Assembly (NCBI GenBank): GCA_045863235.1
Contig: BTUM01000019.1
Span: forward strand, 18,691 to 82,690
Direction of reading: 5' to 3'
Length of the DNA: 64,000 nucleotides
Source: Candidatus Xenobia bacterium
GTDB lineage: Bacteria; Vulcanimicrobiota; Xenobia; Xenobiales; QWHO01
Shown here in pieces: positions 8,589 through 31,373 of the stretch. Positions within the stretch are counted from its first letter, which is position 1; every line of letters starts with the position of its first letter. The translations under genes were made by a program, and so were the position numbers. Under the pieces are notes generated by a model. The model did no database searches. It saw only the letters and a list, made by a program, of their open reading frames with translations, and was not told where the DNA came from.

Positions 8589-8591
8589 GCT

Positions 8592-10523: not shown

Positions 10524-10656
10524 ACCAGGGGAATGTTCTCAATCTCTCATGCCGGATCCTGCCCGTCAAAATGGCTTAAAAACTCGCATAACGGCCCCAG
10601 CTCTTGAATCGGGCTCAAAGCGGGAAACTCCGCCGAGGGTCCGAACTCCGCCCGCC

Positions 10657-14767: not shown

Positions 14768-15273
14768 TCAAAACGTAGAGCCGTCTTGAGGCAGAAGGTG
14801 CCTTCCCCGCCGGACCAGCCGGTCAGGCGAGGCAGCAGGGCCGGCACGCTCCGGCAATACTGCTCATAGGTCTCGCCAAACTGCTTGCGCAAGAAGCCCT
14901 CTTCCAGCGGGATGATGGTCGTGTAGATGCCCGTGTGAATGCCAACCGCCGCCAGGAAGACCCAGGGACCCACCGAGCCCATGCCGGCTGTGGCCGCCAG
15001 GGCCACCCCGGCCCCGTTGAGCAGGTTGCCCAGATAGAGGGGATTGCGTAGATAGGAGTACGGCCCGGCGGTGATCAACCGGGGCGCGTCGAGGTACTGC
15101 CGGCGAGTGGGAAGCCCGGTGTAGCCCAGGGCCCACAGCCGGAGAAGCTCGCCCATGAAAGCCAGGCAGGCGCCCAGCATCAGGCCGGTCGGGCTGGGGC
15201 GGCTGTAGTAGAGCACCAGCACGCCGGTGACTCCGGCCAGGGCTCCTCTCCAACGAAACACAAATTCACGCAT
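14689..15273 (-). CDS. ICMT/PEMT-family membrane methyltransferase
   Basis: TM helices plus the C-terminal GPYSYLRNPLYLGNLL motif typical of isoprenylcysteine carboxyl methyltransferase-like enzymes. Start taken at the internal MREFVF. Confidence 0.7.
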   Translation of the reverse strand: MREFVFRWRGALAGVTGVLVLYYSRPSPTGLMLGACLAFMGELLRLWALGYTGLPTRRQYLDAPRLITAGPYSYLRNPLYLGNLLNGAGVALAATAGMGSVGPWVFLAAVGIHTGIYTTIIPLEEGFLRKQFGETYEQYCRSVPALLPRLTGWSGGEGTFCLKTALRFEWSTFAWLTVAWSILLWKLRLTGTVL

Positions 15274-16504
15274 ACTGCTTTGCCAGGGGCAGACCGAGGG
15301 TCTCGAGAATTTGGTCCGCCAGCCTTTCCCCCGCACCCGGAGCTCCCATCAGAACGCGCAACTCGCGGGAGAGCTGCGCGCGACGCTCGGAATCTCGAGC
15401 CAACTCCTCCAGAACGCTTATCAACGGCTCCAGAGAATCCTGCAAGAGCACCTCGGGAACCAGCTTGCGCCCGGCCCTGAGGTTCGGTTGCGCCACACCG
15501 TGGGGAAACCTCAAATACTCCCTCAGCCGGAGCTGTTCCTTCCAGGCTCCGAGAGGCATCAGGTCGAGCAGCCCCCCCAGGCCTCCGCGCGGGAGCGGAG
15601 CGCGAGTCGATAGAACCAGCACCATCGGGCATCCTGCGCAGGCGAGCTCAGCCGTATTCGTGCCCGGGATGGTCAGGGCCAGATCGAGCGCTCCCATCGA
15701 CTGGTGGGGCCTGCCCTGGGTCAGTGCGATCTCCAGGCCGGCGCGAGTTCTCAGGCTCTTCAGACCGAACTGGCCCGAGCTGCGCTCCAGTCCCAGGTCG
15801 ATGGGGTGGTCCAGTGCCTGTTGGGCGGCCGCCAGGCTGACGAAGGGCGAAAGAACCAGCAAGAACTGGAACTCCGGGTGGCTGCTGGTGAGCTTCTCAG
15901 CAACGCGCAAAAAGAGCGGCAGAGCGGCCCGCAGATGGACTGCGCGCGAGCCCGGGAAAAGTCCCAGCACGGGCCGGTCCATTGCCAGGCCCAGCGCCTG
16001 GCGCGCACCCTCCCGACTCTCGGGCAGGGACACACCGTCCACCATCAGGTTGCCCACGCAAACGATGCGCTGAGGGGCTACCCCGCGCGCGACCAGGGGG
16101 GCGACCAGCTCCGGACTGGGCACGGCCACACGCTGGAAAGCGCGGGCCTGACGGCTTGGGCGCACCGAGTAGGCCAGACCGGGCACGCCCCAGAGGTGGG
16201 CCAGACGGCCGGCCTGCCACAACTCTCCGCCCAGGAAGACGACAATGGCCTGCCTGGAAGGCCGGAAACCAGACATCCCCAGCAACAGGCGCAGAGTCTC
16301 TCGGGGAGCCAGGACGCTGGTCAAGCCAGGCAACTGGCCAGCATACTCCATTTCGCGACCGCTGGCATAAGGACAGGGAACCAGGGCCACGTGCAGACGA
16401 AGATCGCTCTGGCGAGCCAGCAGGGCCTGGCTGGTGACGCGCACCCACGAGGAGAGCTCGCCCGGCGAATTCGAGGTCATGATGATGTCGGGCATCGCGA
16501 GCAA
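15266..16504 (-). CDS. Lipid-A-disaccharide synthase-related glycosyltransferase (second LpxB-like paralog)
   Basis: 412 aa GT-B-like protein. N-terminus IIMTSNSPGELSSWV is analogous to the 12310-13467 paralog. Confidence 0.5.
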   Translation of the reverse strand: MLAMPDIIMTSNSPGELSSWVRVTSQALLARQSDLRLHVALVPCPYASGREMEYAGQLPGLTSVLAPRETLRLLLGMSGFRPSRQAIVVFLGGELWQAGRLAHLWGVPGLAYSVRPSRQARAFQRVAVPSPELVAPLVARGVAPQRIVCVGNLMVDGVSLPESREGARQALGLAMDRPVLGLFPGSRAVHLRAALPLFLRVAEKLTSSHPEFQFLLVLSPFVSLAAAQQALDHPIDLGLERSSGQFGLKSLRTRAGLEIALTQGRPHQSMGALDLALTIPGTNTAELACAGCPMVLVLSTRAPLPRGGLGGLLDLMPLGAWKEQLRLREYLRFPHGVAQPNLRAGRKLVPEVLLQDSLEPLISVLEELARDSERRAQLSRELRVLMGAPGAGERLADQILETLGLPLAKQYA

Positions 16505-16638
16505 TGTAGTGCATTTGCGGCCGCTTGTCGACCAGGCCCCAGCAGCTCCTCGCGGAATTCTGCATCACTCCGCCAGCAGTCCGGCTATCTTCGGAGGTGC
16601 TAGGGCATTGGCGCGGCGCCCCTACAGTGCTGAGCAGG

Positions 16639-17802
16639 TCAACGCGCGGGACTGTATCGACTCTGCAGGAGCCCTTCGACGTGGTCAGCCACCCGGCCGA
16701 TCACTCCTGGCTCACCCACCGAGGCCCGGGCCCGATCCAGGCACTCCAGCATGCGCTCGCGCTCCGGTCCCTCCTCAAAGAGCCGGATGGCCTCACGGAC
16801 CAGGTTCTCGGGGGTGGCCGTGGTCTGCAAGAACTCCGGCATCACGTCCTCGTCGAGCACCAGGTTGACCAGGCCGAAACGGTCCACCCGCATCAGCTTG
16901 AGGCGGCGCAGCAACCGATAGAGGGCCCAGTCGAAAGAGCTGCCTTTATAGAAAACCACGTGGGGAATGCGCAGGAGAGCCGCCTCCAGGCTGGCCGTTC
17001 CGCTGGTAATCAGGGCCACGCGCGAAGCGGCCAGAGCCTCCCTCGCCTGGCCCTGCAAGACGTGAAGATAGGGCGGCGTGGTGCCCAATTGCCGGGCCAG
17101 AAACGGCGCCAGCCGGGGGGTGGCGCAGGGGATCAGGAACTTCACGTCCGGATAGCGCTGACGCAACAGAGCGGCCGCCTCGAGCAATACCGGAGTCAGA
17201 TAGCGCAGTTCCTGGATGCGGCTCCCGGGTAGCAACGCGACATAGCGGCCGGGCTTCAGTCCCAGGGCCTGCTGGGCCTGTTCCAGCGGTCGGGGGGGAC
17301 CGATGATATCCACCAGCGGATGGCCGAAAAAGCCAACCTCCAGACCGTTCTTGCGGTACTGCTCGGCATTGAAGCGAAAGGCCGTCACCACGCTGGTAAC
17401 CCGCTGGTGGATCTGGTGAAGTCTCTTTGAGCTGCGGGTCCACTGAGAAGGCGGGAAGTAATACATCGTCCTGATCCCGTGCCGCTGTGCAAACCCCGCC
17501 AACCGGTAGTGGGCGGCCGGACTGTCGATCACGATCAGCAGGTCAGGGCGCACCTCGAGCAGCAGTTTGCGCATCTTCCGGTAGGCAAGCAGCAAGGTGG
17601 GGATCAGCCCGATGGCGGCGCTCGGACCGATCACGCCCCAACCGGTGCTGTCGATGAAAACCTCGACTCCGGCCGCCCTCATGGAGTGTCCTCCCGCACC
17701 GAGAATGCGCATCTGGGGGTGACGACGCTTCAATTCGGCGGCCAGAGCGGCGGCCTGCAGATCGCCCGAAGGCTCGGCCGTGCTGATGACCAGCGTGCTC
17801 AC
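16639..17802 (-). CDS. lpxB: Lipid-A-disaccharide synthase
   Basis: N-terminal ISTAEPSGDLQAA motif (the LpxB AGExSGD box), GT19 fold, about 387 aa. Confidence 0.85.
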   Translation of the reverse strand: MSTLVISTAEPSGDLQAAALAAELKRRHPQMRILGAGGHSMRAAGVEVFIDSTGWGVIGPSAAIGLIPTLLLAYRKMRKLLLEVRPDLLIVIDSPAAHYRLAGFAQRHGIRTMYYFPPSQWTRSSKRLHQIHQRVTSVVTAFRFNAEQYRKNGLEVGFFGHPLVDIIGPPRPLEQAQQALGLKPGRYVALLPGSRIQELRYLTPVLLEAAALLRQRYPDVKFLIPCATPRLAPFLARQLGTTPPYLHVLQGQAREALAASRVALITSGTASLEAALLRIPHVVFYKGSSFDWALYRLLRRLKLMRVDRFGLVNLVLDEDVMPEFLQTTATPENLVREAIRLFEEGPERERMLECLDRARASVGEPGVIGRVADHVEGLLQSRYSPAR

Positions 17803-18783: not shown

Positions 18784-19812
18784 CTAACCCGCTAACGCGA
18801 TCAAATCTTTCGGCAGCGGAGCCTTGGACTTGACGATTTTCATTCGGGCCAGAACCTGCATTGCAAGCTCAAGTGCTCGTTTGCCATCCTCGCCGGTCAC
18901 CAGCGGGGTTTTGTGGGTGGCCACGCAGTCGGCAAAGTGACTCAATTCGAGGCGAAGCGGCTCTTTCTTCTCAAGCTGGACAAACTCGGGAGCCATCGGA
19001 TAACCGTTGGAGGGTGGGCGCAGAATGGACAAATTCTGGTTGATGAAGTCGAGGCAGAGTGTCCGGCCCGAGTCTTCGGTGACCTTCAGTTGACGCAACC
19101 GCTCTCCGCTTACCCGGCTGGCCATCAGGCTGGCGGCGGTTCCGTTCTTGAAGAGCAGATGCACCTGGGCGATGTCCTCGAAGTCGGAGTAGACGGACAC
19201 GCCCACCGCATTGATCTCCACCACGGGCGAATTGACCAGGTTGATGAGGATATCCAGGTCGTGGATCATGAGGTCCCAGACAACCCCCACGTCGAGGTTC
19301 CGGTTGGTCGGGTAGGAGAGTCGGTGCGACTCGAGGTGAATGGGCCGACCCAGGACTTCGCGCAGTTTGCCCACCGCAGGATTGAAGCGCTCCAGGTGGC
19401 CCACCTGAAGCACCAGGTTGCGCTTCTTGGCGTAGTCCACCAGGCGCTTGGCCTGAATCAGATCCACGGTGATGGGTTTCTCCACCAGAACGTGAATGTC
19501 GCGAGCCAGAAACTCCATGGCCAGCTCGTAATGAAAGATGGTGGGGGCAACGATGTTCACGGCTTCGACCCGCTCGAACAGGTCGCGGTAGCTGTTGAAG
19601 AACTGGGTATGAAACCGGTCCGAGCAGATGCGACCGCGGGCCTCGTTGACATCGACGACGCCGACCAGCTCGGTCTGGGGAAGCTCGGAATAGACCCGGG
19701 CATGGTGCACGCCCATGTTCCCGATGCCCACCACTCCCACTTTGACCGGTTCCAAGACTTTGCGCCTCCTTCGTCCTGAGGCCCCGCTCCTCAACGGCGA
19801 ATCCCTTGCCAC
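18784..19812 (-). CDS. Gfo/Idh/MocA family NAD(P)-dependent oxidoreductase
   Basis: Rossmann VKVGVVGIGNMG near the N-terminus, the Gfo/Idh/MocA EKP motif (VLVEKPI) and a C-terminal alpha/beta domain. The true start may be an internal GTG. Confidence 0.8.
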   Translation of the reverse strand: MARDSPLRSGASGRRRRKVLEPVKVGVVGIGNMGVHHARVYSELPQTELVGVVDVNEARGRICSDRFHTQFFNSYRDLFERVEAVNIVAPTIFHYELAMEFLARDIHVLVEKPITVDLIQAKRLVDYAKKRNLVLQVGHLERFNPAVGKLREVLGRPIHLESHRLSYPTNRNLDVGVVWDLMIHDLDILINLVNSPVVEINAVGVSVYSDFEDIAQVHLLFKNGTAASLMASRVSGERLRQLKVTEDSGRTLCLDFINQNLSILRPPSNGYPMAPEFVQLEKKEPLRLELSHFADCVATHKTPLVTGEDGKRALELAMQVLARMKIVKSKAPLPKDLIALAG

Positions 19813-19894: not shown

Positions 19895-20374
19895 TCACGA
19901 TTTTGTGACCGTTCCGCCATCCAGGGCGCCTGGAGAAAGCCCTGCTCCGACACTCACGGGCACGGTCTGGGAATTTGAATGCGCTTCCAGAGTAAAATCG
20001 CCCTGCATGGCCGTCTTCTCTTCAACCAGCGCCTGACACCGCAGCCGATAGCGCTCTCCTTCCCGTTCAAGCAACTCGACCTGCAGGTCGAGTCGGTCGC
20101 CCGGAACGACCTGGCGCCGGAATTTCAGGCGCTCGATGCGCACCACTCGAAAGCCACGGCCCAGGAAGATCCAGGCCAATTGCAGCAGGCTCTCGATTTG
20201 CAGCACCCCGGGCATAACCGGAAAGTGCGGAAAATGGCCCCGAAAGTACGGCTCATTGATGGTGACGTTCTTGTAGCCGGTAGCGCGTTTCTCGTCAAGC
20301 TCCAGAACCCGATCCAAGAGCAGGCATGGGTAACGGTGGGGCAACCTCTTCCTGATTTCGCTCATCTCCAACAT
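19895..20374 (-). CDS. fabZ: 3-hydroxyacyl-ACP dehydratase
   Basis: LPHRYPCLLLDRV..EPYFRGHFPHFPVMPGVL hot-dog fold motifs. Confidence 0.9.
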   Translation of the reverse strand: MLEMSEIRKRLPHRYPCLLLDRVLELDEKRATGYKNVTINEPYFRGHFPHFPVMPGVLQIESLLQLAWIFLGRGFRVVRIERLKFRRQVVPGDRLDLQVELLEREGERYRLRCQALVEEKTAMQGDFTLEAHSNSQTVPVSVGAGLSPGALDGGTVTKS

Positions 20375-21200
20375 CGGTCGGGTCCTCCTTCAGTACTTTG
20401 CCCACCAACTCGACATGCAAGCGGTGGCCGGCCTTGACCGCCACCACCCGGGCCATCAGATCGCATCCAAGCAGTGCCAGATCCCCCACCAGGTCAAGAC
20501 ACTTGTGACGCACGGGCTCGTCGGGAAAACGAAGCTCTGAGGTGTAGCCGTCGGAACGGATCACCAGAGCGTTGGACAGATCTCCCCCCCTGGCCAGACC
20601 CCTCTCGAGCAGGGCCTCGACCTCCTCCATGAAGCCATAGGTGCGAGCCGCAGCCAATCCTGAGAGGAAGCTCTCCGGGGTAGGCGTGTGATGAACCTGC
20701 TGGTAGGTGATCATCGGATGCTGATAATGCAGCGAATACTCCAGCCGCGCCTCGGCCGCAGGCAGAGCCAGCACCAGGGCGTTCTCGTCGCCCACCCAGA
20801 GAGGTCGCGTCAGCACGTGCCGGCAGGCGGGCCGCTCCTGGCCAACGACGCCGACGGCCAGAAAGGCCTCCGCGAACGGCAGAGCAGAGCCGTCCAGAAT
20901 GGGCACCTCAGGGCCCTCGATCAAGATGCGGAGGTTGTCGAGTCGAAGACCCGCGCAGGCGGCCAGCAAATGCTCGACGGTGCTGACCGAAACCCCCCCG
21001 GCCGAGAGCACGGTGCAGCGCTCGACTGAGCTCACCCGGGCGTGCAAGGCGGGGATCTCCTGACCGTGACGAACGAACACCCGACCGGAGTCGACGGGAG
21101 CCGGCAGTACTTCAACCCGGGCCAACTGGCCCAGGTGAATGCCCACCCCCTCGAAGCGCACCGGGGCAGCCAGTGTTTGCTGGGGCCTGCTCACTTCCAT
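20295..21200 (-). CDS. lpxC: UDP-3-O-acyl-N-acetylglucosamine deacetylase
   Basis: QQTLAAPVRFEGVGIHLGQ N-terminus and HxxEH-type zinc motifs (VEHLLAACAG). Start taken at the internal MEVSRPQQTL. The 3' end overlaps the fabZ start by about 70-80 nt in a different frame. Confidence 0.85.
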   Translation of the reverse strand: MEVSRPQQTLAAPVRFEGVGIHLGQLARVEVLPAPVDSGRVFVRHGQEIPALHARVSSVERCTVLSAGGVSVSTVEHLLAACAGLRLDNLRILIEGPEVPILDGSALPFAEAFLAVGVVGQERPACRHVLTRPLWVGDENALVLALPAAEARLEYSLHYQHPMITYQQVHHTPTPESFLSGLAAARTYGFMEEVEALLERGLARGGDLSNALVIRSDGYTSELRFPDEPVRHKCLDLVGDLALLGCDLMARVVAVKAGHRLHVELVGKVLKEDPTDVGDERNQEEVAPPLPMPALGSGSGA

Positions 21201-22999
21201 TCGGTCCCTCCCGGAACTTGCAGAGGACCGGAGGTAGTCGGCTCGCCCTGCCCCGTCACGTCGTGCCATTGCAGTTCGGCCGGGTAACTCGAGGAGGCCT
21301 CGGGGAAGGTCAGCAGACGCACGACCTTCTTTTCGCCCGGCCCCAGGTCGAAGTGGCGAACCAGGCTTGGCGGAGCGCCTTGCGGCTTGCGAAAGGGGGT
21401 TTCATAAACCTTGCCGTCGATGAGAAACGAGCCGGCGGCGGGTCCGTTCAGAGGCAGAAAATAGAGACCCACCCGGACCGGGAAGGGGCGCGGATTGATC
21501 AGTGTCGTCTCCAGCCGATAAAACACCCCGAAATTGCCGGTGTTGGGCAACCCGGTTTCGAAGTCGATCAGCCAGGGATCTTCTCCGAAGCGCACCCCGA
21601 CCGGGGCTCCCCCGGTGCGAAACTCGAGCTCTTCTTCGAAATATGGCTGGGCAAAGACGCCGTGGGGGTGAATCTTGAAAGGGTTGAAGGGGGCGCCCAG
21701 GTGGGGCAACTTCTTACCGTCGTTGAAGCTGGGGGCCAGCTCGGTGCGCACTTCGACCTCCAGCGACTCGCCTTCCAGAATGCGGAGGTTGGCAAAGCCG
21801 GTCACCAGAGCCTGGGTGCCAACCTCATGGGCAGCCAGCTCCAGCTTCGTCCGCGGCGGCATGGTGAGCACGTAACCAGCGCCGTCCCCCTCTTGCTCGA
21901 GAAATCGCGTGGCCGAGGTGTGCCCTACCAGAACCTCGTTCCGACTCGGACCAGCGTACAGCGTGTTGACCAGCACCTTGACTGCCTGGTCGTTGGGGTT
22001 CTCCAGATTGACCCACAGGTTGCGCTTGCCTTTGGAGATGTTTTTATGGCTGTACATCAGCCGGCTGGGCTCTTTCTGGCTGAACTTGTATTGCAGCAGG
22101 ACCCCATCCACGTCAACGAGTTCGGGGCGATTGGAGACCAACAGCAAGTTGGCCTCGACCGGCTCGACGTCCAGGCTGCTGACCACAACGGGCAGGCTCC
22201 TGGCGACAGGATAATAATCCTCGCTGCCTTCGATCTTGATAGGCACGGTCAGTCGCATCATCTGGCCGCGCGGGACGGAAGGGAGCTCGCTCAAATCCCC
22301 CCCCACGCTCATCACACAGCCCGGACGCACCCGGGCCTGCACATAGGCTTCCCGCAAGACCCCTTCGGCCACCACCGCGCCCGGGGCTGGATTGCCCACC
22401 ACCTGGACGTTGACCACCTCGGGCAAGGTTCCGGCCCAGTCCTTGACGTGGACGAAGAGATAGGCCTGACCCTGGCCTCGACGCACCTTCAAGCGGGTCT
22501 TGCCCACCCGCGATCCGGTCAGGGTCAAGAGCCCGGTCTCATCGACCGCAGCCTGGACCACCCCGTTGGCGTCCTCCACCTCGATGGGCCCTTCGGCCAG
22601 GCCGGTCACCTCGATCGTGCGCGCCTCGCCAACGGGCATAACCACTCGCCCGGGAGAAAGTCGCACCAACCCATCGGCGACCAGCTCGTGCAGGTTGTTG
22701 GCCCAGCGCAGAGCCAGCTTGAGGGGGTCGCTCTGGTTGGCCGCGGCCATGCTCCTGGTGACCTCGACGATCAGCACCCCGCCCCAGAGAATGGTGGCGC
22801 CATTCTTACTCTTGACGACCTTGATGCCTTCGGGGTCGGCCCCTCGCTCGAGTTGCGCTTCGATGCGCCGGGACACGGCTTCGGCCTGCTCGGCGCTTTC
22901 CAGTCGCATCACGACTCGATCGCCCAGAGTGACTTCCTGGGCCAGACCAGGCAAAGCCAGGGCCAGGAAAAAGACCATAACCAGGACCCGAACGCTCAC
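21191..22999 (-). CDS. Secreted hypothetical protein (602 aa) embedded in lipid A cluster
   Basis: Signal peptide MSVRVLVMVFFLALALPGLAQE. No recognisable enzymatic motifs. Beta-rich composition. Confidence 0.55.
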   Translation of the reverse strand: MSVRVLVMVFFLALALPGLAQEVTLGDRVVMRLESAEQAEAVSRRIEAQLERGADPEGIKVVKSKNGATILWGGVLIVEVTRSMAAANQSDPLKLALRWANNLHELVADGLVRLSPGRVVMPVGEARTIEVTGLAEGPIEVEDANGVVQAAVDETGLLTLTGSRVGKTRLKVRRGQGQAYLFVHVKDWAGTLPEVVNVQVVGNPAPGAVVAEGVLREAYVQARVRPGCVMSVGGDLSELPSVPRGQMMRLTVPIKIEGSEDYYPVARSLPVVVSSLDVEPVEANLLLVSNRPELVDVDGVLLQYKFSQKEPSRLMYSHKNISKGKRNLWVNLENPNDQAVKVLVNTLYAGPSRNEVLVGHTSATRFLEQEGDGAGYVLTMPPRTKLELAAHEVGTQALVTGFANLRILEGESLEVEVRTELAPSFNDGKKLPHLGAPFNPFKIHPHGVFAQPYFEEELEFRTGGAPVGVRFGEDPWLIDFETGLPNTGNFGVFYRLETTLINPRPFPVRVGLYFLPLNGPAAGSFLIDGKVYETPFRKPQGAPPSLVRHFDLGPGEKKVVRLLTFPEASSSYPAELQWHDVTGQGEPTTSGPLQVPGGTEWK

Positions 23000-23919
23000 T
23001 GGCGATCTCCCAGCAGGCGCTCGAGCTCCTTGAGCGCCTGCGGCAGCCGGTGAAGAGCGGCATACACCTCGACCGCTTCCTTCCTGTCACGCCCCGGGTA
23101 CCCGGCCAGAACCGCGCCCGGAGGCACCTTCTTACGCATCGAGCCGCAACGCGGCAAAAGCTCGACCCCGTCACCAAGCTCTACATGGCCGAGAGTTCCG
23201 CTCTGCCAGCCCAGACGGCAATCCTGCCCGATGTGGGCCGAACCGGGCAGGCCAACCTGCTCGCCGATGACGGTCCGGTCGCCAACCTGGACGTTGTGAC
23301 CGATCTGAGTCAGGCTGCCAATCCTCACCTCGCGGCCGATCCGGGTGGTCGTGGTGGTGGCCCGGTCGATGCACACACCGGACTCGATGACCGAGTCGTC
23401 GCCGACCTCCACCAGACCCACCTGAGGAATCTTGAGGTGCTGGCCCTGGTCCACCACGTAGCCGTAACCGTCGCTGCCCAGAATGGCACCCGAGGCCACT
23501 CGAACCCTGCGACCCAGGCGCACTCCTTGCATCAGCACGGCCCCCGGCTCGAGCAAGCACTCCTCGCCGACCTCAACGCCGGCGGCGACGAAACAGCACG
23601 GCCCGACCAGCACGCGGTCACCCAGGCGAGCACCGGGCTCGACCACGGCCCCGGCTCCGACGGTAACCCCCTCGCCCAACCAGGCCTCGGCCGACACGGC
23701 TGCTCCCGGCACCAGGGTGAGACAGTCTCTGAGACGCTGGTAAAGCTGCTCGTCGCCCTGGAGCTCGACCCCCACGGTAGCGTCCCCACCTGTGCTGCCA
23801 GGAGGACCCAGCCCCCCCGGGCGGGCTCCCAGGCAGCTGATGCGCAGTTCGGGCTGGTCGGTAGTAGCGCCGAATTCTCGGGCCAGATCGACCAGACGCC
23901 AGGGTGGACCGTTTAGCAA
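22996..23919 (-). CDS. lpxD: UDP-3-O-acylglucosamine N-acyltransferase paralog
   Basis: Hexapeptide beta-helix with the LpxD C-terminal helix. This is the second LpxD-family gene in the window. Confidence 0.8.
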   Translation of the reverse strand: MLNGPPWRLVDLAREFGATTDQPELRISCLGARPGGLGPPGSTGGDATVGVELQGDEQLYQRLRDCLTLVPGAAVSAEAWLGEGVTVGAGAVVEPGARLGDRVLVGPCCFVAAGVEVGEECLLEPGAVLMQGVRLGRRVRVASGAILGSDGYGYVVDQGQHLKIPQVGLVEVGDDSVIESGVCIDRATTTTTRIGREVRIGSLTQIGHNVQVGDRTVIGEQVGLPGSAHIGQDCRLGWQSGTLGHVELGDGVELLPRCGSMRKKVPPGAVLAGYPGRDRKEAVEVYAALHRLPQALKELERLLGDRQ

Positions 23920-23946: not shown

Positions 23947-24390
23947 CTACTTCTGGTTCAGCTTGATGAGGATGTCGGTGGTCACATTCTCACCGCTCGT
24001 GTACTGCACGGCGGGCAGATGCATGGTATCGATCACGACCACGTCCAGCCCCCGCTCGCGGGCCACCTGCTCGGAAGCCTGGGTGATGCGCCGGTAGGCG
24101 TCTTCGTAAAACTTGCTCGAGCGAGCCTGCCACGACTTGGAGGCCCGCTGGATGCGGTCGTTGAGGTCCTTCAGCTTCCGCTTGTCAAACTCTTCCCTGG
24201 ATTGGGGAATGCTGGAGAGAAAGCTCCCCGTCTCCGCTGCCCAACTCAAGTTCATGTCACGAAACTCGGGCATCTCGCTGACCACACGCTCGGTATTGAC
24301 GACGCCGACCTTCAGCTTGCGCGGCTCGCCCTGACCGCAACCGACGACCAGCAACACCAGGCTCAAGAGGACGGCTCTGGTCATGCTCAT
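23947..24390 (-). CDS. OmpH/Skp family periplasmic chaperone (lipoprotein-type signal)
   Basis: 147 aa. Signal with LLVVGCG lipobox. OmpH-like N- and C-terminal motifs (KVGVVNTERV ... LDVVVIDTMHL). Confidence 0.75.
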   Translation of the reverse strand: MSMTRAVLLSLVLLVVGCGQGEPRKLKVGVVNTERVVSEMPEFRDMNLSWAAETGSFLSSIPQSREEFDKRKLKDLNDRIQRASKSWQARSSKFYEDAYRRITQASEQVARERGLDVVVIDTMHLPAVQYTSGENVTTDILIKLNQK

Positions 24391-24875
24391 TTCTTCTTCT
24401 CGGGCGCCTTCGGCGGAGTTTGCTGGAGTTTGAGCTCCAGGTCCTGGGTGATGCTCACCGCGCCATACTCCACGGTGGGATAGCCAGGCGTGTCCACCAA
24501 CACGAGGTCGATGCCCTTATCCTTGCTGACCGCCTCGGCCGCCTCGCTGATGTGCGCGAAACGGGTCTTGAGGAACTCCTGAGTCTTGGTGAACCACTTC
24601 TTGTCCAGCTCGGCATTCATCTGGCGGAACTTGCTCAGATCGGTCTGGCTAAGATTGCTCGGGCCTCCGGCCTCGCGAATGCGGGCGTTGATCTTCTTCT
24701 GCAACTCGACCCGGGCCTTGGCATAGTCGCTGGCCATCTTCTGATAATCCGGGTCGCTCTGCACCAGCGAAACGGTGTTCACAGTTCCGGTCGTCAATTT
24801 GCCCGTGGGGCTGCAACCGACCAGAGCCAACAGCCCCAGCGCCACCCCCAACAATGCCGTGCGTTTCATAAACAT
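24387..24875 (-). CDS. OmpH/Skp family periplasmic chaperone (lipoprotein-type signal)
   Basis: 162 aa. Signal LLALVGCS. Motifs TGTVNTVSLV ... IDLVLVDTPGYP and a Lys-rich tail. Confidence 0.75.
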   Translation of the reverse strand: MFMKRTALLGVALGLLALVGCSPTGKLTTGTVNTVSLVQSDPDYQKMASDYAKARVELQKKINARIREAGGPSNLSQTDLSKFRQMNAELDKKWFTKTQEFLKTRFAHISEAAEAVSKDKGIDLVLVDTPGYPTVEYGAVSITQDLELKLQQTPPKAPEKKK

Positions 24876-24879
24876 CCTC

Positions 24880-26304
24880 CTAGGGCGATTCGGGCCTGGC
24901 CTTGGTCTTGATAGCGACCATCGCGTAGTCAGTCAGATCGACACAGCCACGATTCTCAACGTAGGTGCCGATCACAATGTCGATCTTCTGCTTCTTGGCC
25001 ACTTCGCCGATGTCGCCCTTGAGGTCCGCCACCATCTTGTCGAAAAGCTCGTTACGCTGTGTCTGGAGCTTGTCACGCTGCTCCTCGAGCACCTTGATCT
25101 TCTCCCTGGTGGCTGCCGAGAGTCCCTCTCGGGCATTGGCCTGCACGGCCTTCTTCAGCTCTTCTTGCTGCTTCTCAATGCGGGCCTTCAGCTCTTCCGA
25201 CTTTGTCTTGAGCCGGGCCACGGCCACACCCTGCTCGGCTTCCATCTTCTGGCGAGCGGCAGCCGCTTCGGCCTCCATCTTGGAGCGCAGCTCATCTTGC
25301 TTCTTGGCGATCATCGCCTTGATCTCCGGTGTCAAGGTGGGCTGCTTGGGGCGAGGGGCCGGGGGAGGGGCCCCCGCGCTGGCAGGCAGAGCCCCGATCT
25401 GGCCCTCGACCTCGCGATTGACTTTGTCGATGGCGGCTTTGGTTTCGGCCGCCTGGCGGGCCTCGGAATCGGCCCGGAAGGTCTTGAAGCTGCCCTCGAG
25501 CTCGGCACGCTTGGCGTCCTTGAGCCGCTCTTCCTCGTCCGAGATGGCCTCGAGCTGGGCCTGCAGGTCGGCCTGCTCGGCCTCGTCCTTGGCCACCTGA
25601 ACTTTCAGCTGAAGGTTCAGCTTCTCTTGCTGATGGGTCTTCATGATCTCGTCTTCGTACGCGGCGATCTCCGAGTCGATGCGGGCTCGCTCGGCCTCGC
25701 GCTGCTCGCGGTGCACTTTCTCGACCTCGAGCTTGATGGCTTGAACCTTGCGCTCGCGCAGGAGCAAGAGGTTCTTGCGCTGCTCGCCGAGAGGCGCCGG
25801 CATGTTGACTGGCTCGGCCGGCGCGGCCGCTTCAGGAGCGTTCTTCTTGATGTAGGCTTCGAGCTCTTTCTGCATCTCGGCCGAGCCCTTGGCTGCCTCA
25901 GCATCGAGCCGGGCCTTCATCTGATCGGAGAGCCCTGCCATCTCGGCCGCGATGGCCGCCTGCTCGGCCTCCATCTCGGACTGCGCTCTCATGAGCTCTT
26001 TCTTGTACTTCTCCTGGGCGGCTCTCAGAATGTCATCGCGGTCCTGCATAGGCGCGAACTCGATCTCTTGCTTGAGCCCGGCCAGTTGCTCGTCGAGTTG
26101 GGTCAAGCGCTCGTAGTCAGGATGAGCCTTGAGCAGGTTGGAATAGTCCACCACGCCCAGCGTGCCGCCCAGGGCCTCACGGACCGCAGCCTGCTGATCT
26201 TGAGCCCCCACCGGAGTCGCCAGAAAGGCGCCCGAGGCCAGGACCGAAACCAGCGCCAATCCACTCCCCCAGCGCAACCATGCGGATCGCAAAGTGTTGT
26301 GCAT
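24880..26304 (-). CDS. Extended coiled-coil OmpH/Skp-like protein
   Basis: 474 aa. Signal peptide. OmpH-like N-terminus (LGVVDYSNLLKAHPDY) and C-terminus (IDIVIGTYVENRG). The roughly 350-aa middle is Glu/Ala/Lys/Gln-rich coiled coil. Confidence 0.6.
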   Translation of the reverse strand: MHNTLRSAWLRWGSGLALVSVLASGAFLATPVGAQDQQAAVREALGGTLGVVDYSNLLKAHPDYERLTQLDEQLAGLKQEIEFAPMQDRDDILRAAQEKYKKELMRAQSEMEAEQAAIAAEMAGLSDQMKARLDAEAAKGSAEMQKELEAYIKKNAPEAAAPAEPVNMPAPLGEQRKNLLLLRERKVQAIKLEVEKVHREQREAERARIDSEIAAYEDEIMKTHQQEKLNLQLKVQVAKDEAEQADLQAQLEAISDEEERLKDAKRAELEGSFKTFRADSEARQAAETKAAIDKVNREVEGQIGALPASAGAPPPAPRPKQPTLTPEIKAMIAKKQDELRSKMEAEAAAARQKMEAEQGVAVARLKTKSEELKARIEKQQEELKKAVQANAREGLSAATREKIKVLEEQRDKLQTQRNELFDKMVADLKGDIGEVAKKQKIDIVIGTYVENRGCVDLTDYAMVAIKTKARPESP

Positions 26305-26317
26305 GACCTTGCCCTCC

Positions 26318-27250
26318 TTACGGACTGCCGGGAGCTTTGGTGTTGGCGGCCGGAGTGCCCTTGCTGCCAGTCTTCTTCAGGAAGGTATCCACCACTTCGT
26401 TGGTGAGGTTTCGCCCTCCATACATGACGTGCACTTTGTCGAGCACCAACGAAACGTTGTTGGCCTCCGCCGCCTCGGACACCGACTGATTGACGGCTTG
26501 CACGAGGGGGGCAACCTCGGATTCCTGGCGAGCTTCCATGCGCATCATCAGCTCCTTCTGGAGATTCTCCACCTCTTGCTGACTGCGACCCTGGGCTTTC
26601 TTACGGAACTCCTCGCCCAGCTCATTCTTGAGGGCGGCGAGCTTGAGGTCCACCTCCTGGAAGGCCTTCAGGTTGCGCACGACATCCTGGTCGAAGTAGG
26701 CGATTGGCGAGTCCTTGGTATCATCCTCGGCCGGCAGCTTGAGCTCGGCCTTGGAGGTGAATTGAGACTTGACTTCCTCGGTGATGTCCTCGACCCCATA
26801 GACCACGATGCGCTTATCCAGCACGACCTTGTAATTCTTGTTGCGAGCCACGATGGCGATGGCCGCCTCGGCCCGGGTCTGCAACGGCTGGAGGGTCTTG
26901 TTTCGCTCCTGCTGCAGCTCCAACTCGAACTCGGAGGCCTTTTCACGCACCTTGCGGGCACCCTCCTCGTTACGCGGTTGGGTGGCGGCAAACTCCTCCA
27001 GCTTTTTGGTGTATTCGGAGTTTTTCTTGTCCAGGTGCTCGCGCGCCTTGGTGAAGTCCTCGAGCTGGTAGATGGCGTCCGAGTCGAGCGAGGCTACCTT
27101 CTTGACGGGCGAGCCGACACCGCCGCTCCTGAGCACGAACCAACCGGCGGCGATGGCCACCAGCAGCAGGACGAAGCCTGCGATCAAAGGGATCTTATTG
27201 GAGCCTCCGCCGGACGAGGGGGATGTCATCGTGGTTTCTCCGTCTTGCAT
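26318..27250 (-). CDS. Membrane-anchored tandem double OmpH/Skp-domain protein
   Basis: 310 aa. N-terminal TM anchor (IPLIAGFVLLLVAIAAGWFVL). Two successive OmpH-like units, each ending in a YKVVLDKRIVVYG / VSLVLDKVHVMYG motif. Confidence 0.6.
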   Translation of the reverse strand: MQDGETTMTSPSSGGGSNKIPLIAGFVLLLVAIAAGWFVLRSGGVGSPVKKVASLDSDAIYQLEDFTKAREHLDKKNSEYTKKLEEFAATQPRNEEGARKVREKASEFELELQQERNKTLQPLQTRAEAAIAIVARNKNYKVVLDKRIVVYGVEDITEEVKSQFTSKAELKLPAEDDTKDSPIAYFDQDVVRNLKAFQEVDLKLAALKNELGEEFRKKAQGRSQQEVENLQKELMMRMEARQESEVAPLVQAVNQSVSEAAEANNVSLVLDKVHVMYGGRNLTNEVVDTFLKKTGSKGTPAANTKAPGSP

Positions 27251-27452
27251 GCGAAATGGACCTCCTCAAGAGCCGGGGGCTTTCGCGCCGCCGCCCGCCA
27301 GAACGATGTCTCACACGCGGGTGAGCTTTGGGTTATCGGTAGTCTATCCGTTTCCGCTCGGCTGTCAACAGTCCGACCAGGAACAATCAGGCAACCGTTA
27401 CAGCAACGGACGCAGAAGGACTTGAAAAAGTTCCCAACTCAGCTGGGGTTTT

Positions 27453-30005
27453 TCAGAACGACTGGCCGATGCCCAGACTGGCCCGACCGCCGTCTTCTCC
27501 GAAGGCGTAGTCGATGCGGATGACGCCCAGCCCGAGGCTGGGGAACACGATGCGAAGACCGGCTCCGACGTCAGCTTTGAGGGCGCCCGAGGTGACCCCC
27601 GGAGTCCAGGCATTGCCGGCGTCAGCAAACACAGCCCCACGCAAGAACTTGATGCGGCCGATTCCGAAGCGATACTCGGCGTTCAGCACCACGAAGCGGG
27701 TTCCGAAGAAGGCGTTCTCACGATAGCCACGCAACGTGTCCGTGCCACCCGCGAAGAAGAACTCCGAAACCGGGGCGTTCCCGTTCAGCATTCCGGCCCA
27801 GGCCCGCATGGCCAGGGTCGAGTTGCTACCGAACGGAATGTAGGAGCGGCCCTCGGCGACCAGCTTCGTGTAGCTGAAATCCCCACCCAGACCGGCAAAG
27901 GCGACCGAGCCGTTGGCAAAGTTGCCCACGGTCGGATTGAAAACATCGTCGCGCGTGTCGTAGAGGGCCGAGACGGCCAGGCTGTTCAGATCGCCATTTC
28001 CAATGCCCACGGGCACGAACAGCGATTCTGGATCCTGGGTAATCTCGATGGTCTCGCGGCGGAAGGTCAAGAAGCCGCGGAAGTCGTCGGTAAAGGGATG
28101 TCCGTAGGTGATCGTGCCGCCATAGCGGCGATCATCATACAGGGCGAACTGATCGGGATTCCCGCCGATGACCGGCTGGCGTAGCCCGGAAACTTCGTTG
28201 AGGAACAAGGAGATGCCGATGGAGTCCTGGTTGTCGTTGATGGCCGGATCGAAGTAGCTCAGGCCCAGAGCGCTGATGTTGGCACCGCGCTGCCACTGGA
28301 CGCTGACCGACTTGCCCTGGCCGAAGAGGTTGCGGTCGGAGAAAGAGATGGCACCGGTGATGCCCGGTCGCACCGCGCCCGAGCCGCCACCGGCATAACC
28401 CACGCCGATGGTGGCCAGGCCCGTCTTCTGCTCTTCCACCGCCAGAACGAGCACCACCTTGCCCGGCTCGGTGCCAGGCTCGGGCTCGATATTGACTTTC
28501 TTGAAGTAACCGAGGTTGTTGAGACGCTCGAGGTCCTTTTGAATCTTGCGCCGCTGCAAGACCTCACCGGGCTTGGTGCGCAGATTCCTGGTGATGGTGT
28601 CGGTTTCGGTCTTGGTGTTGCCCTCGACCCGAATCTCTTCCACCACAGCCTCGAGCACCTTGAGGGTCACCGCGCCCTGATCGGGATCAAGCCGCGGACG
28701 GATGGTATCCAGAATGTAGTCGTTCTTTTCGTACAACTCGGCAACGCGAGCACTGTCTTCTTTGATGGTCTTCTGGTTGAAGAGCTCGCCGACTCGGGTC
28801 TGAACCAACGAGCGAACCTCTTGCTCCGGAAAAACGGTCACACCCTCGATGCTCACGGATTGAACCAGCATGCCATCCTTGATAGTGAGGGCGAGGGTTC
28901 CCTCGCCCCACTTCAAGTCGACCACGTGAGTCGGGGTAAGCAGGTAGCCGAGGTCCTCGTTATAGTACTTATTGATGTTCTGAATGTCGGCGTGCAGAGT
29001 GCGAGTATTCAGAATCTTGCCAGCCCTGGTCTCCATCAACTCGACGATCTTTTCGGTGGGAACCACCTGGTTACCACTGATCACCACCTGGTTGACCATC
29101 GGATTCTCGAGCACCCGGAAGATCAGTCGCACTCCTCCGGGAGCGCCACGCGTATCCAGGCGCACGTCGGTGAAGTAACCCAGATCGAAGATAGCCTGCA
29201 TGTCACGACGCAGCCGCGGCTCGAGCACCGGATCACCGATGCGGGTCGAGACCACCTGCAACACCTCTTCCGTGGGAACCTGAGCGTTGCCCTCGATCTC
29301 GATATTGACCACGCGGGGCGCGGCGGACTCGGGTGGCTGCTCCTCTCCCCCGGGGGTCGGGGTCTCCTCCGAGCCCGGAGCCACGGCGGCCGAATCCACT
29401 GGCAGAATGTCGCGACCGAGCGGAGCCTGAGCGTAACGGGCCGACGAGACGATCATCTCGCGATTGGCCCCCAGGGTAAAAATGACCGAAACCGTGTCGC
29501 CCGCCTTCAATCCTTCGGCCAACTGGCTGTCGGGCGAAACCAGGAAGATCATGTCCCTCTCGCTGCCATCGGCAGCCTTGCCGCGCACACTGAGTTTTTC
29601 GTCTTCGAGCAACAGGACCTGACCGCTGAAACGATAGGTGCCCTCGGGCAGACTGTCGGCAGCGGGGCTCTCCGCGGGAGGCGTTCCTTCGCCGGCCGGC
29701 GCAGCACCCTCACCTTCAGTCGGCTGAGGCGGAGCCGCGCCATCGCCCTCTGGCGGCTGAGGGGGCGCCCCGCCGGGCTGGGGAGGAACGGCGCCCTCAC
29801 CCTCCGCAGGCTGGGGAACCGGGGCCTCAGGCGAGGCCCCCTCCTCCCCGTCGGCCGCGGGCTGAGCCGGAACCGCCTCTTCTTCGGCGGCTACCACCCC
29901 GGACTCGGACGCTCCGCCACCCGGCAACTCCTGAGCCAACACCCCCACGGGCAAGCTCATAAAGAGCATGGCAACCACCAGGGCGAGGCTAATTTTCTTC
30001 TTCAT
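27453..30005 (-). CDS. bamA: Outer membrane protein assembly factor BamA (Omp85) with N-terminal Pro/Glu-rich extension
   Basis: 850 aa. Signal peptide, about 200 aa of low-complexity PPQP/EGEGA repeats, POTRA domains, and a 16-strand barrel ending ...IDYAFGEDGGRASLGIGQSF. Confidence 0.9.
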   Translation of the reverse strand: MKKKISLALVVAMLFMSLPVGVLAQELPGGGASESGVVAAEEEAVPAQPAADGEEGASPEAPVPQPAEGEGAVPPQPGGAPPQPPEGDGAAPPQPTEGEGAAPAGEGTPPAESPAADSLPEGTYRFSGQVLLLEDEKLSVRGKAADGSERDMIFLVSPDSQLAEGLKAGDTVSVIFTLGANREMIVSSARYAQAPLGRDILPVDSAAVAPGSEETPTPGGEEQPPESAAPRVVNIEIEGNAQVPTEEVLQVVSTRIGDPVLEPRLRRDMQAIFDLGYFTDVRLDTRGAPGGVRLIFRVLENPMVNQVVISGNQVVPTEKIVELMETRAGKILNTRTLHADIQNINKYYNEDLGYLLTPTHVVDLKWGEGTLALTIKDGMLVQSVSIEGVTVFPEQEVRSLVQTRVGELFNQKTIKEDSARVAELYEKNDYILDTIRPRLDPDQGAVTLKVLEAVVEEIRVEGNTKTETDTITRNLRTKPGEVLQRRKIQKDLERLNNLGYFKKVNIEPEPGTEPGKVVLVLAVEEQKTGLATIGVGYAGGGSGAVRPGITGAISFSDRNLFGQGKSVSVQWQRGANISALGLSYFDPAINDNQDSIGISLFLNEVSGLRQPVIGGNPDQFALYDDRRYGGTITYGHPFTDDFRGFLTFRRETIEITQDPESLFVPVGIGNGDLNSLAVSALYDTRDDVFNPTVGNFANGSVAFAGLGGDFSYTKLVAEGRSYIPFGSNSTLAMRAWAGMLNGNAPVSEFFFAGGTDTLRGYRENAFFGTRFVVLNAEYRFGIGRIKFLRGAVFADAGNAWTPGVTSGALKADVGAGLRIVFPSLGLGVIRIDYAFGEDGGRASLGIGQSF

Positions 30006-30266: not shown

Positions 30267-31373
30267 TTGTGCGAAAGGGCTCCAATGAGGCGGTTTGGAG
30301 CCCTTCTTCTGGTGCTGACCTGGGTCGCGCAGGCCCAAGAGCCGCCCGGCTCGGTGCGTTGGAGCTACAAGCTGCCCTTCCCGGTGCGCAGCCTGGCCGT
30401 GAGCGAGCAGGGCGTGGCCCTGGTCGGCTCGGACTTTGGCAATTACCTGCACGCAGTGGACGTATTACCTGGAACCTTTCTCTGGAAGAGAGACCTGGCC
30501 GGCTCCATCTGGAGCCCGGCAGTCGTCACTCAGGAAGCGGCCTATCTGGTCCCCAACGCGGCGGCCCTGATTGCGCTTCGTATCGAAACCGGGGACGTAC
30601 TGTTCTGGTTGGGACCCCGCTTCCCATCAGGGGACCGTCCGCCCTGGCAGAACAAAGCCCCTCCCGCCGTGGGCCCTAACCGGATCTGGCTGGTCTCCCT
30701 CAACGGCACGCTCTGCAAGCTTGACGCCACCGGGAAACCGCTGGGACAGACAGAGCTGCAAGGCCTGAACCAGACGGACCAGTTTTGGAGTCGCCCGGCC
30801 CTGGCAGGCGACTCGCTGTTCATCGGCTCCATCCGTGGTCGCCTTCACCGGGTGGCCAGCGAGACCTTGCGACGCAAGGAGACGATTGAGCTGGGAGAGG
30901 ATATCCGAGCCGATGTAATCGCTCGCGACGACCGGCTCTATGTTTCTACCGTCAACGGCTCACTGTATGCCTTTCGAGCCGACCCGGAGCGCACCGTGCA
31001 ACTCTGGAAACTTTCTCTACGCAGCCGAGCTCCTGGCGGCAGCACCGGGCGTTCACCCGTCATTCCACTGGTAATGGAGGACCGCTTGCTGGTTGCCAGC
31101 CGCACCGCCGCCTATTGCCTGGACCGGCGAACCGGCGGCATCCTCTGGAGAAGGGAGGTCGAATCCGGAATCGCCGCCCCCCTGACCCTGGTCAAAGACC
31201 GGGTGCAACTGGTCACCGGTCAGGGAGAACTGGTCTCATTGGCACTCGCCACCGGACAGATGCTGGGAGGAGTCCCCCTGCGTGGCATCCCCACGGCCGG
31301 CCCTCTGGCCTGGGGAGAAGTCGTGCTGGTAGGTTTCTCGGATGGGATGCTCCAGGCGGTAAGCCCGCCCTGA
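30267..31373 (+). CDS. PQQ-like beta-propeller repeat protein (BamB-like)
   Basis: Signal peptide with AQA cleavage site. Repeated W..(D/N)G.L.A.D..TG..LW motifs. Confidence 0.7.
   Translation: MCERAPMRRFGALLLVLTWVAQAQEPPGSVRWSYKLPFPVRSLAVSEQGVALVGSDFGNYLHAVDVLPGTFLWKRDLAGSIWSPAVVTQEAAYLVPNAAALIALRIETGDVLFWLGPRFPSGDRPPWQNKAPPAVGPNRIWLVSLNGTLCKLDATGKPLGQTELQGLNQTDQFWSRPALAGDSLFIGSIRGRLHRVASETLRRKETIELGEDIRADVIARDDRLYVSTVNGSLYAFRADPERTVQLWKLSLRSRAPGGSTGRSPVIPLVMEDRLLVASRTAAYCLDRRTGGILWRREVESGIAAPLTLVKDRVQLVTGQGELVSLALATGQMLGGVPLRGIPTAGPLAWGEVVLVGFSDGMLQAVSPP

Follow-up and report, generated by a model that had tools for sequence, protein, structure and literature searches.

Four Skp/OmpH genes between bamA and lpxD

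We analysed a stretch of 64,000 nucleotides (nt) from a Candidatus Xenobia bacterium (contig BTUM01000019.1, positions 18,691 to 82,690 of the forward strand; hereafter the window), in which four consecutive genes at 23947-27250 on the minus strand lie between bamA and lpxD. All four belong to the Skp/OmpH family and together encode five OmpH units, distributed over a double-unit protein (D), a long-arm protein (L) and two short forms (S1 and S2). With the genes on either side the locus reads as follows, lengths being given in amino acids (aa).

27453-30005, minus strand: bamA, 850 aa (Pfam Omp85 153.7 bits, POTRA 150.2 bits)
26318-27250, minus strand: D, 310 aa, double Skp/OmpH protein
24880-26304, minus strand: L, 474 aa, long-arm Skp
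24387-24875, minus strand: S1, 162 aa, or 160 aa from the ATG at 24869, the probable start
23947-24390, minus strand: S2, 147 aa, its start overlapping the S1 stop by 4 nt
22996-23919, minus strand: lpxD, 307 aa (NF002060 220 bits against a cut-off of 207), 27 nt past S2

The bamA product also scored 340.6 bits against the TIGR03303 BamA model (cut-off 297), and the ATG at 24869 is the S1 start in public gene calls. The intergenic spacing is 202 nt from bamA to D and then 13, 4, -4, 27 and -4 nt down the series, so that the genes from D to lpxD form a compact operon whose internal gaps lie between -4 and +27 nt; lpxD is in the same operon as S2. Strong GGAGG Shine-Dalgarno sequences stand upstream of D and L.

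Membership of the OmpH family

Family membership was assessed with the Pfam OmpH model (PF03938, gathering score 32.4 bits) and by profile-profile comparison, in which family alignments built from related loci were compared as profiles. D as a whole scored 72 bits in two stretches and S2 scored 41 bits, whereas S1 (27.4 bits) and L (25.5 bits) fell under the cut-off. Residues 345-459 of L aligned to profile positions 15-135; when its thirds were scanned alone, the C-terminal third reached 29.1 bits over the same positions, the N-terminal third gave a weak match to positions 2-105 (E = 0.12) and the middle third gave no PF03938 match. Profile-profile comparison related S1 to S2 with a probability of 99.9%, unit 1 of D to unit 2 with 99.8%, and the short forms to the D units with 97-99% (97% for S1). 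The C-terminal part of L (322-470) matched S2 and both D units at 95-96%, and its N-terminal part (44-160) matched S2 at 93% over the first 32 columns, covering the body strand and the start of the first helix, while residues 165-320 showed no profile-profile match to S or D units. These results tie S1 and L to the family in spite of their Pfam scores, and show that the array holds five OmpH units, the one in L being divided by an extended stretch of inserted helix.

The initial annotation, made from the sequence alone, had described four consecutive OmpH-like genes with five units downstream of bamA, and Pfam and profile-profile evidence together bear this out, although searching each open reading frame (ORF) with the OmpH profile puts D and S2 only above the cut-off, S1 and L being rescued by the profile-profile step. 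No other ORF within the 64-kb window matches the S, D or L family profiles. A phmmer search of S1 and S2 against PDB sequences returned nothing meaningful. Pfam and NCBIfam scans detected no SLH, OmpA-like or LysM domain in D, L, S1 or S2, and none of the four proteins qualifies as an outer-membrane tether of the OmpM/SLH or Lpp type. A weak NCBIfam match of D to BamJ was judged to be noise; BamJ is an FKBP-type isomerase of the barrel assembly machinery (BAM) complex of Bacteroidota (PMC12578637).

D contains two Skp units behind a membrane anchor

The 310-aa form was read earlier as having an N-terminal transmembrane (TM) anchor and two OmpH units, and each half of it indeed passes PF03938 when scanned alone. 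The anchor, like all export signals described below, was assigned by reading the sequence and not by a TM or dedicated signal-peptide predictor; its secondary structure is taken from an AlphaFold2 (AF2) model.

27128-27190, minus strand: N-terminal TM anchor PLIAGFVLLLVAIAAGWFVLR, 21 hydrophobic residues without Cys, AF2 helix 23-40
26741-27109, minus strand: unit 1, aa 48-170, PF03938 48.7 bits alone
26363-26725, minus strand: unit 2, aa 176-296, PF03938 36.3 bits alone

The AF2 model of D, computed from an alignment of 43 sequences (mean predicted local distance difference test score, pLDDT, 83.6; predicted template-modelling score 0.69), is composed of two successive strand / helical hairpin / strand units. 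Unit 1 comprises strand 52-55, helices 64-90 and 95-137 and strand 142-145, and unit 2 comprises strand 183-186, helices 195-219 and 224-263 and strand 268-278. A Foldseek search of the model against the PDB returned Skp/OmpH chains as all of its top nine matches (probability 0.94-1.00, E 6e-3 to 0.2), with SkpA of the T9SS (type IX secretion system; 8GL8) as the best, together with E. coli Skp (1U2M and 1SG2) and a Caulobacter entry (4KQT), and the D family profile also retrieved Skp/OmpH entries from the PDB sequences. The homologues of D number 77, with lengths of 193-355 aa, most of them 270-355 aa.

L is a single unit with a long hinged arm

The elements of L used below are the following.

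26053-26166, minus strand: N-terminal body strand and first helix, aa 47-84 (TLGVVDY...)
25792-25842, minus strand: hinge 1 NAPEAAAPAEPVNMPAP, aa 155-171, a break of the AF2 helix with pLDDT <50
25585-25632, minus strand: arm-tip motif QQEKLNLQLKVQVAKD, aa 225-240, with a predicted turn at 238-240
25330-25392, minus strand: hinge 2 ALPASAGAPPPAPRPKQPTLT, aa 305-325, marked by the Pro/Gly and indel pattern and an AF2 break
24895-25116, minus strand: C-terminal helix and body strands, aa 397-470 (...IDIVIGTYV...DLTDYAMV)

In the AF2 model of L (mean pLDDT 76.2; alignment of 10 sequences), strands 49-52 and 443-446 flank five long helices (64-154, 172-237, 241-304, 326-392 and 397-438), which are interrupted at 155-171 and 305-325, both modelled with low confidence, and by three residues at 238-240. 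V52, H61, P62, D63 and Y64 are invariant in the ten sequences. The span between the body strands is ~387 aa in L compared with ~80-90 aa in each of the other four units, and the helical insertion that splits the OmpH unit amounts to about 270-390 aa. The sizes are thus bimodal, and not graded as the initial annotation had proposed.

An alignment of 46 L sequences revealed that Pro/Gly and indels cluster at 155-172 and 305-327, the three helical blocks being almost without indels, and in the variants of 427-444 aa (loci L039-L043) hinges 1 and 2 shrink together. The helices fall into two pairs of similar length, one of 69 aa (86-154) and 67 aa (326-392), the other of 66 aa (172-237) and 64 aa (241-304). 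As both ends of the chain have to come together in the body, a single long antiparallel hairpin would be the simplest arrangement, with its tip at 238-240 and an elbow at which hinges 1 and 2 lie opposite each other, a packing that was deduced from helix lengths and topology and not from model coordinates. The most conserved nine-residue window of the L family, [KR][LV]NLQL.xQ at 228-236, lies beside the predicted tip, and its conservation exceeds that of the body motif DLTDxxMV.

The 474-aa protein had been thought to carry OmpH ends separated by a coiled coil. The OmpH ends and the long helical separation hold, but the helix is broken by two Pro-rich hinges and follows an 11-residue and not a 7-residue period. 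A heptad pattern was tried and rejected: a single-sequence Fourier test was non-significant in the four long helices, and the family-averaged z was negative near a period of 3.5 in three of the four. For lags of 11, 22 and 14 residues, autocorrelation of hydrophobicity along the arm gave pooled z values of +5.0, +6.3 and -3.7, respectively, the 11-residue repeat being strongest in the 86-154 / 326-392 pair of the family-averaged profile. A coiled coil in the heptad sense is therefore unsupported for L. A scan for tandem repeats in the DNA found none under L, so that the insert is not a recent repeat expansion.

The 11-residue amphipathic repeats might alternatively mean that L binds lipid as apolipoproteins do, in the traffic of lipid A/lipopolysaccharide (LPS) or of phospholipid. 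Among PDB sequences the L profile matches apolipoproteins A-IV and E best (E = 5e-7 to 1e-3), a weak match to Pfam Apolipoprotein (PF01442) exists, the arms show the hendecad periodicity described above, and the genes are co-operonic with lpxD, lpxC and fabZ. However, the PF01442 score is 20.3 bits against a gathering score of 90, so that L was rejected as an apolipoprotein homologue, and the matches are attributable to a shared 11-residue amphipathic periodicity and a Glu/Ala/Lys/Gln composition. The ends of L are OmpH body segments, the mean hydropathy of its arms is strongly negative (~-0.8 to -1.0), and the bamA-skp-lpxD-fabZ linkage is general in diderms and implies no lipid role for Skp. 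A function in lipid handling is consequently considered very improbable.

Export, anchoring and charge

The two short forms are of lipoprotein type, as had been proposed, S1 (~160 aa) with the lipobox LVGC and S2 (147 aa) with LVVGC, and lipoboxes are kept in nearly all S orthologues. L has a signal peptide of cleavable type at aa 1-34, with VGA before and QD after the cleavage site, and a lipobox in many other lineages. The Cys-free hydrophobic helix of D is found here and in the closest relatives; the same position carries a lipobox in other Xenobia and a cleavable-type signal in the Eremiobacteria-class orthologues. N-terminal hydrophobic signals for Sec export are conserved across the families, the type of anchor varying by lineage. 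The mature short forms are basic (isoelectric point, pI, 9.1 for S1 and 8.8 for S2), whereas L (pI 5.4) and D (pI 5.7) are acidic. A basic protein with positive tentacles, a trait that is typical of Skp without strictly defining it, is thus seen in S1 and S2 and not in D and L, suggesting that client binding by the latter two may differ from that of canonical Skp.

The array is conserved across the phylum

Identical proteins in the same gene order are present on two independent public assemblies. A scan of one genome per GTDB species gave 52 loci, the informative names of which are Vulcanimicrobiota, Eremiobacteraeota, Candidatus Xenobia, UBP9, Bruticola, Baltobacteraceae and Vulcanimicrobiaceae. 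Every untruncated locus among these 52 Eremiobacterota (Vulcanimicrobiota) genomes, which belong to the classes Xenobia and Eremiobacteria, has the order bamA>D>L>S(1-2)>lpxD. Most often, in 27 loci, the full layout reads bamA>D>L>S>S>lpxD>U>lpxC; a single-S variant follows with 6 loci, and the remaining loci are mostly truncated contigs or distant loci in which L or S was missed by phmmer. With the L-family profile, L (437-509 aa) was found in three of the distant loci, two of which also yielded a short S (133-137 aa), and it is this recovery of missed genes that allows the succession of D, L and S to be stated for every untruncated locus. In the untruncated loci, D measures ~270-350 aa, L ~427-505 aa and S, in one or two copies, ~130-190 aa; D and L are always adjacent, the gap between them being mostly -4 to +30 nt. 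Close homologues of L are few, a word-indexed search having found 12, named 'bacterium CPR1' and 'Candidatus Eremiobacterota', and an exhaustive profile search found 183 clusters (50% identity) with E <1e-3, ~60 of them full-length at about 400-505 aa.

These data bear on the possibility that the long and double ORFs are frameshifted, as raised at the outset, or else mis-assembled or decaying skp copies. No support for it was found beyond the scores of L and S1 under the Pfam cut-off. It is refuted by length-conserved orthologues in the 52 genomes, which reach down to 23-33% identity, and by the same intact ORFs on two assemblies; the Shine-Dalgarno sequences ahead of D and L, the lack of a DNA tandem repeat and the confident structure models also speak against it. 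The genes are not frameshift artefacts, an explanation that can practically be dismissed, and the conservation in related genomes that the initial annotation had left to be checked extends over all 52 loci. S, D and L are three ancient classes and a hallmark of Eremiobacterota/Vulcanimicrobiota. This phylum belongs to Bacillati, and the envelope of its cultured member, Vulcanimicrobium alpinus WC8-2, is made up of an inner membrane, a thin layer of peptidoglycan and an outer membrane with LPS (PMC9758169).

Many public metagenome-assembled genome (MAG) records that carry the array (among loci L003-L054) are titled Burkholderiales, Selenomonadaceae, Riflebacteria, Binatia, Armatimonadetes or Nitrosotenuis. 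Such implausible taxon titles are probably wrong labels. The order bamA>D>L>S>lpxD is a simple genomic marker for Eremiobacterota contigs, many of which are mislabelled in public records.

Natural D-L fusions and other long relatives

D and L are fused into one chain in three clusters (P0160, P0161 and P0227; 638-652 aa) whose mutual identity is below 50%. In these proteins the TM anchor and the body segments of unit 1 are kept, the hairpin of unit 1 is deleted and unit 2 is complete, and a linker of ~10 aa leads from unit 2 to the start of L, so that each chain holds three body units. The fusions adjoin bamA (2327-4255 in locus L056 and 490-2406 in locus L055). In L056 the fusion is the sole skp gene past bamA and is followed by RNase Y, with neither a short skp nor lpxD.

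Other long forms were also encountered. Locus L057, whose layout of bamA>D>L>S>lpxD is in other respects the usual one, encodes an L of 644 aa (8001-9935), its additional sequence separating the three blocks of the L profile at or close to the two hinges. In other lineages, Skp-like proteins elongated to 370-392 aa combine OmpH ends with a motif of the NLxLK type in the middle of the insert, a motif that was seen in P0157, P0167, P0188 and P0160. P0167 (MBS2037003.1, JST97_18580) is a 391-aa L-like protein with an EKVNLQL motif; it shares the JST97 prefix with the D-family member P0071 (JST97_27165), and its contig differs from that of locus L035. Should P0167 and P0071 belong to a single MAG, some genomes would have, apart from the array, one more long-arm paralog.

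A proposed joint D-L holdase and its alternatives

Skp-family membership is secure, which makes a holdase role in the traffic of outer-membrane proteins (OMPs) to BamA the default, and we infer from the sequences that the array proteins bind unfolded OMPs as ATP-independent holdases. The best explanation of the whole, held with about as much doubt as confidence, is that these are periplasmic holdases of which D and L probably assemble together.

According to this proposal, the holdases would collect unfolded OMPs at the Sec exit and hand them over to BamA. S is the short, basic, lipid-anchored form, similar to E. coli Skp and duplicated here into S1 and S2, which may act as conventional Skp trimers on a lipid tether. 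D has two full Skp units per chain, held at the inner membrane by its uncleaved N-terminal helix in this lineage, and L a single Skp unit whose helical hairpin has grown to ~390 aa. Two units from D and one from L could form one Skp-like three-unit body, which the anchor of D would tether to the inner membrane in this organism while the L arm points outward. The arm is envisaged as an antiparallel hairpin with 86-154 against 326-392 and 172-237 against 241-304, bending at an elbow formed by the hinges. Extended, it might reach up to ~20-23 nm (157 outgoing helical residues at ~1.5 Å each), a length comparable to the width of a periplasm, or about half of this when folded at the elbow, and the conserved tip may serve as a docking point near the outer membrane or BAM. 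Strict adjacency and natural fusions indicate that D and L act together, and because two units and one unit add up to the three of a Skp body, a mixed body is attractive. The fusions suggest mixed assemblies rather than homotrimers, and the larger or mixed assembly that the initial annotation had offered as one of two options fits better than its other option of size-specialised homotrimers.

The latter arrangement, in which independent homotrimers (D then being a hexamer of units) would be specialised by size, S1, S2 and D for small barrels and L, through an enlarged cavity, for very large or multi-domain OMPs, is rather unlikely in our estimate but deserves to be taken seriously. In canonical Skp, which is homotrimeric, it is the tentacles that set the cavity for clients, and large clients need two trimers (PMC9820271); N- and C-terminal body segments are kept in all units; the charge contrast between S and D/L could reflect different clients; and each class has been maintained separately over phylum-scale time. 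On the other hand, unit sizes are bimodal, and a cavity lined by hinged, highly charged acidic arms of ~20 nm would far exceed what a single barrel needs. The most conserved element of L is the arm-tip motif, which is better understood as a docking site than as part of a nonspecific wall, and the fusions and strict adjacency point to joint action of D and L.

It is also conceivable, and in our judgement unlikely, that L, possibly with D, has been repurposed as a periplasmic scaffold or ruler, an intermembrane spacer or a Skp-type clamp on a disordered segment of some outer-membrane machine, for instance the ~230-aa N-terminal extension of BamA. SkpA, the top structural match of D, provides a precedent, since its trimer is built into the structure of the T9SS Extended Translocon and clamps the N-terminus of SprA (PMC10994853). 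The tightly conserved helical segment lengths of L, with indels confined to the hinges, are those expected of a ruler, the tip motif is conserved, and BamA has a long low-complexity N-terminal extension here. Against this, Pfam and NCBIfam detected no peptidoglycan-binding, SLH or membrane-binding domain in L, and the anchors of D and L switch among TM, lipoprotein and soluble forms across lineages, which would be odd for a fixed tether. Furthermore, BamA ORFs range from 746 to 1030 aa across the related loci and L in those loci from ~430 to 500 aa, with no obvious co-variation. We know of no T9SS context in Eremiobacterota.

Returning to the joint D-L holdase, several observations weigh against it. 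The 2+1 body rests on unit arithmetic and gene fusion, and a fusion is a sign of functional linkage, not of a shared barrel; nor are the fusions simply D plus L, given that no tentacle is left in their unit 1. Canonical Skp has basic tentacles, whereas D and L are acidic, and L and S1 by themselves score under the Pfam gathering score. The C-terminal body of L was modelled at pLDDT <50, and a Foldseek search of the L model against the PDB found no Skp, only generic long antiparallel coiled coils with E >0.007 (Rad50, chemoreceptors and MukB/SMC arms); being generic and non-significant, these matches are compatible with a long hairpin and are not evidence of family. In distant Eremiobacteria-class L proteins, moreover, indels do not fall at facing positions of the proposed hairpin.

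In its most far-reaching form, the proposal would have D and L, possibly capped by S, build a hetero-oligomer with a body of three non-identical units, tethered to the inner membrane at the Sec exit, with a hinged arm of ~20 nm spanning the periplasm and its NLQLK tip docking on the POTRA domains or the N-terminal extension of BamA, as a Sec-to-BAM chaperone bridge in a phylum without the proteobacterial accessory set. This version is a speculation that we think unlikely to hold.

Comparison with known Skp systems

The usual picture of Skp is that of a simple homotrimer in soluble form, and E. coli is the source of nearly all mechanistic studies of it. E. coli Skp (HlpA/OmpH; 1SG2, 1U2M) shares with the array the PF03938 domain, the position between bamA and lpxD and the unit of strand body and helical hairpin. 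S1 and S2 also share its size and basic charge. It differs in being one soluble gene product that forms a homotrimer, where four genes are present here; the short forms are lipoproteins, D combines two units with a TM anchor, acidity marks both D and L, and the hairpin of L measures ~390 aa against roughly 100 aa.

The premise that most diderms carry one skp holds for Proteobacteria, but tandem arrays occur in Negativicutes and Halanaerobiales, with up to three copies (PMC5007114, PMC5491611), and in Bacteroidota, with the two paralogs SkpA and SkpB at the bamA locus (PMC10994853). Tandem skp arrays are thus already known, and that of Eremiobacterota is a further architecture. The arrays of Negativicutes and Halanaerobiales (Veillonella vpar_0528-0530), likened here by description, resemble it in having multi-copy skp directly past bamA in an outer-membrane/LPS cluster of a Terrabacteria (Bacillati) diderm, and differ in that they were published as copy number only, with no double-unit or long-arm form described. 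The Bacteroidota pair likewise consists of functionally diverged Skp paralogs in one operon near bamA, but SkpA (8GL8) is a single-unit homotrimer of ordinary length. Among the elongated Skp-like proteins, KRT76273.1 ('outer membrane chaperone Skp [Armatimonadetes bacterium CSP1-3]') has OmpH ends, a long helical insert, a lipobox and an NLxLK-type motif in common with L. Proteins of this kind (~370-392 aa) are ~80-100 aa shorter than L and match its profile in separate pieces only, and are therefore not clear L orthologues; apparently nothing has been published on them. In the open-access literature we found no description of a double-unit Skp, a long-arm Skp or the Eremiobacterota array, an absence that is weak evidence.

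A mixed body would not be without precedent. Prefoldin, the cytosolic holdase of archaea and eukaryotes, has the shape of a jellyfish with a beta-barrel body and coiled-coil tentacles, and its two subunit classes give different numbers of body hairpins to one hetero-oligomer, which may be compared with a body of two units from D and one from L. To our knowledge prefoldin and Skp have no sequence relationship, and their compartments differ. The resemblance between Skp and prefoldin has been pointed out in a review (PMC9820271). If D and L do co-assemble, no hetero-oligomeric Skp would precede them, and they would stand in the periplasm as a counterpart of prefoldin and a testable case of a membrane-tethered, envelope-spanning chaperone, bearing on the means by which barrel proteins traverse the periplasm unfolded and without ATP. 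Otherwise, the array is a natural experiment in which tentacle length and anchoring tune the client range. In either case, a whole diderm Terrabacteria phylum keeps three Skp architectures together, a covalent double unit, a long-arm form with a tip motif and lipid-anchored short forms, the first two of these being fused in some relatives.

Neighbouring genes and regulatory candidates

The remaining features near the array are listed here.

27433-27447, minus strand: terminator-like hairpin just past the bamA stop, a 6-bp stem and T-run (consensus scan, pattern match only)
27341-27368, minus strand: sigma-70-like promoter candidate TTGACA-16-TAGACT, 10/12 consensus (pattern match only)
21191-22999, minus strand: 602-aa gene with a signal peptide, between lpxD and lpxC and overlapping both
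20295-21269, minus strand: lpxC
19895-20374, minus strand: fabZ
18784-19812, minus strand: Gfo/Idh/MocA oxidoreductase, between fabZ and lpxA

The promoter candidate lies in the 202-bp gap upstream of D, where one such site was found compared with 0.5 expected in shuffles. The 602-aa protein had no match in Pfam, NCBIfam or PDB sequences; orthologues of ~570-630 aa occupy the same position in 41 related loci, and the gene is missing from the Eremiobacteria-class loci, in which lpxD abuts lpxC.

The N-terminus of BamA (29316-30005, minus strand) consists of ~230 aa of Pro/Glu/Gly/Ala-rich, low-complexity sequence ahead of the first POTRA match, with repeated EG.GA.PPQP-like motifs flanking a small folded-looking segment. 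Divergent from bamA, 30267-31373 on the plus strand encodes a 368-aa PQQ_2 beta-propeller protein, of the Pfam family described as BamB, with a signal peptide and no lipobox; it may thus be a non-lipidated BamB-like partner.

Two lpxD-like genes are present in the window, that of the skp operon (22996-23919, minus strand), whose 307-aa product is matched by LpxD models only from about residue 70 on, and a second at 10549-11589 on the plus strand, whose product has the canonical LpxD N-terminal domain (PF04613). Further downstream of the oxidoreductase gene lie lpxA and two lpxB paralogs, the latter adjoining each other (15266-17802, minus strand). In locus L057 (14273-16368), a DegT-type aminotransferase stands beside the oxidoreductase, and the two may resemble the GnnA/GnnB pair for diamino-sugar lipid A.

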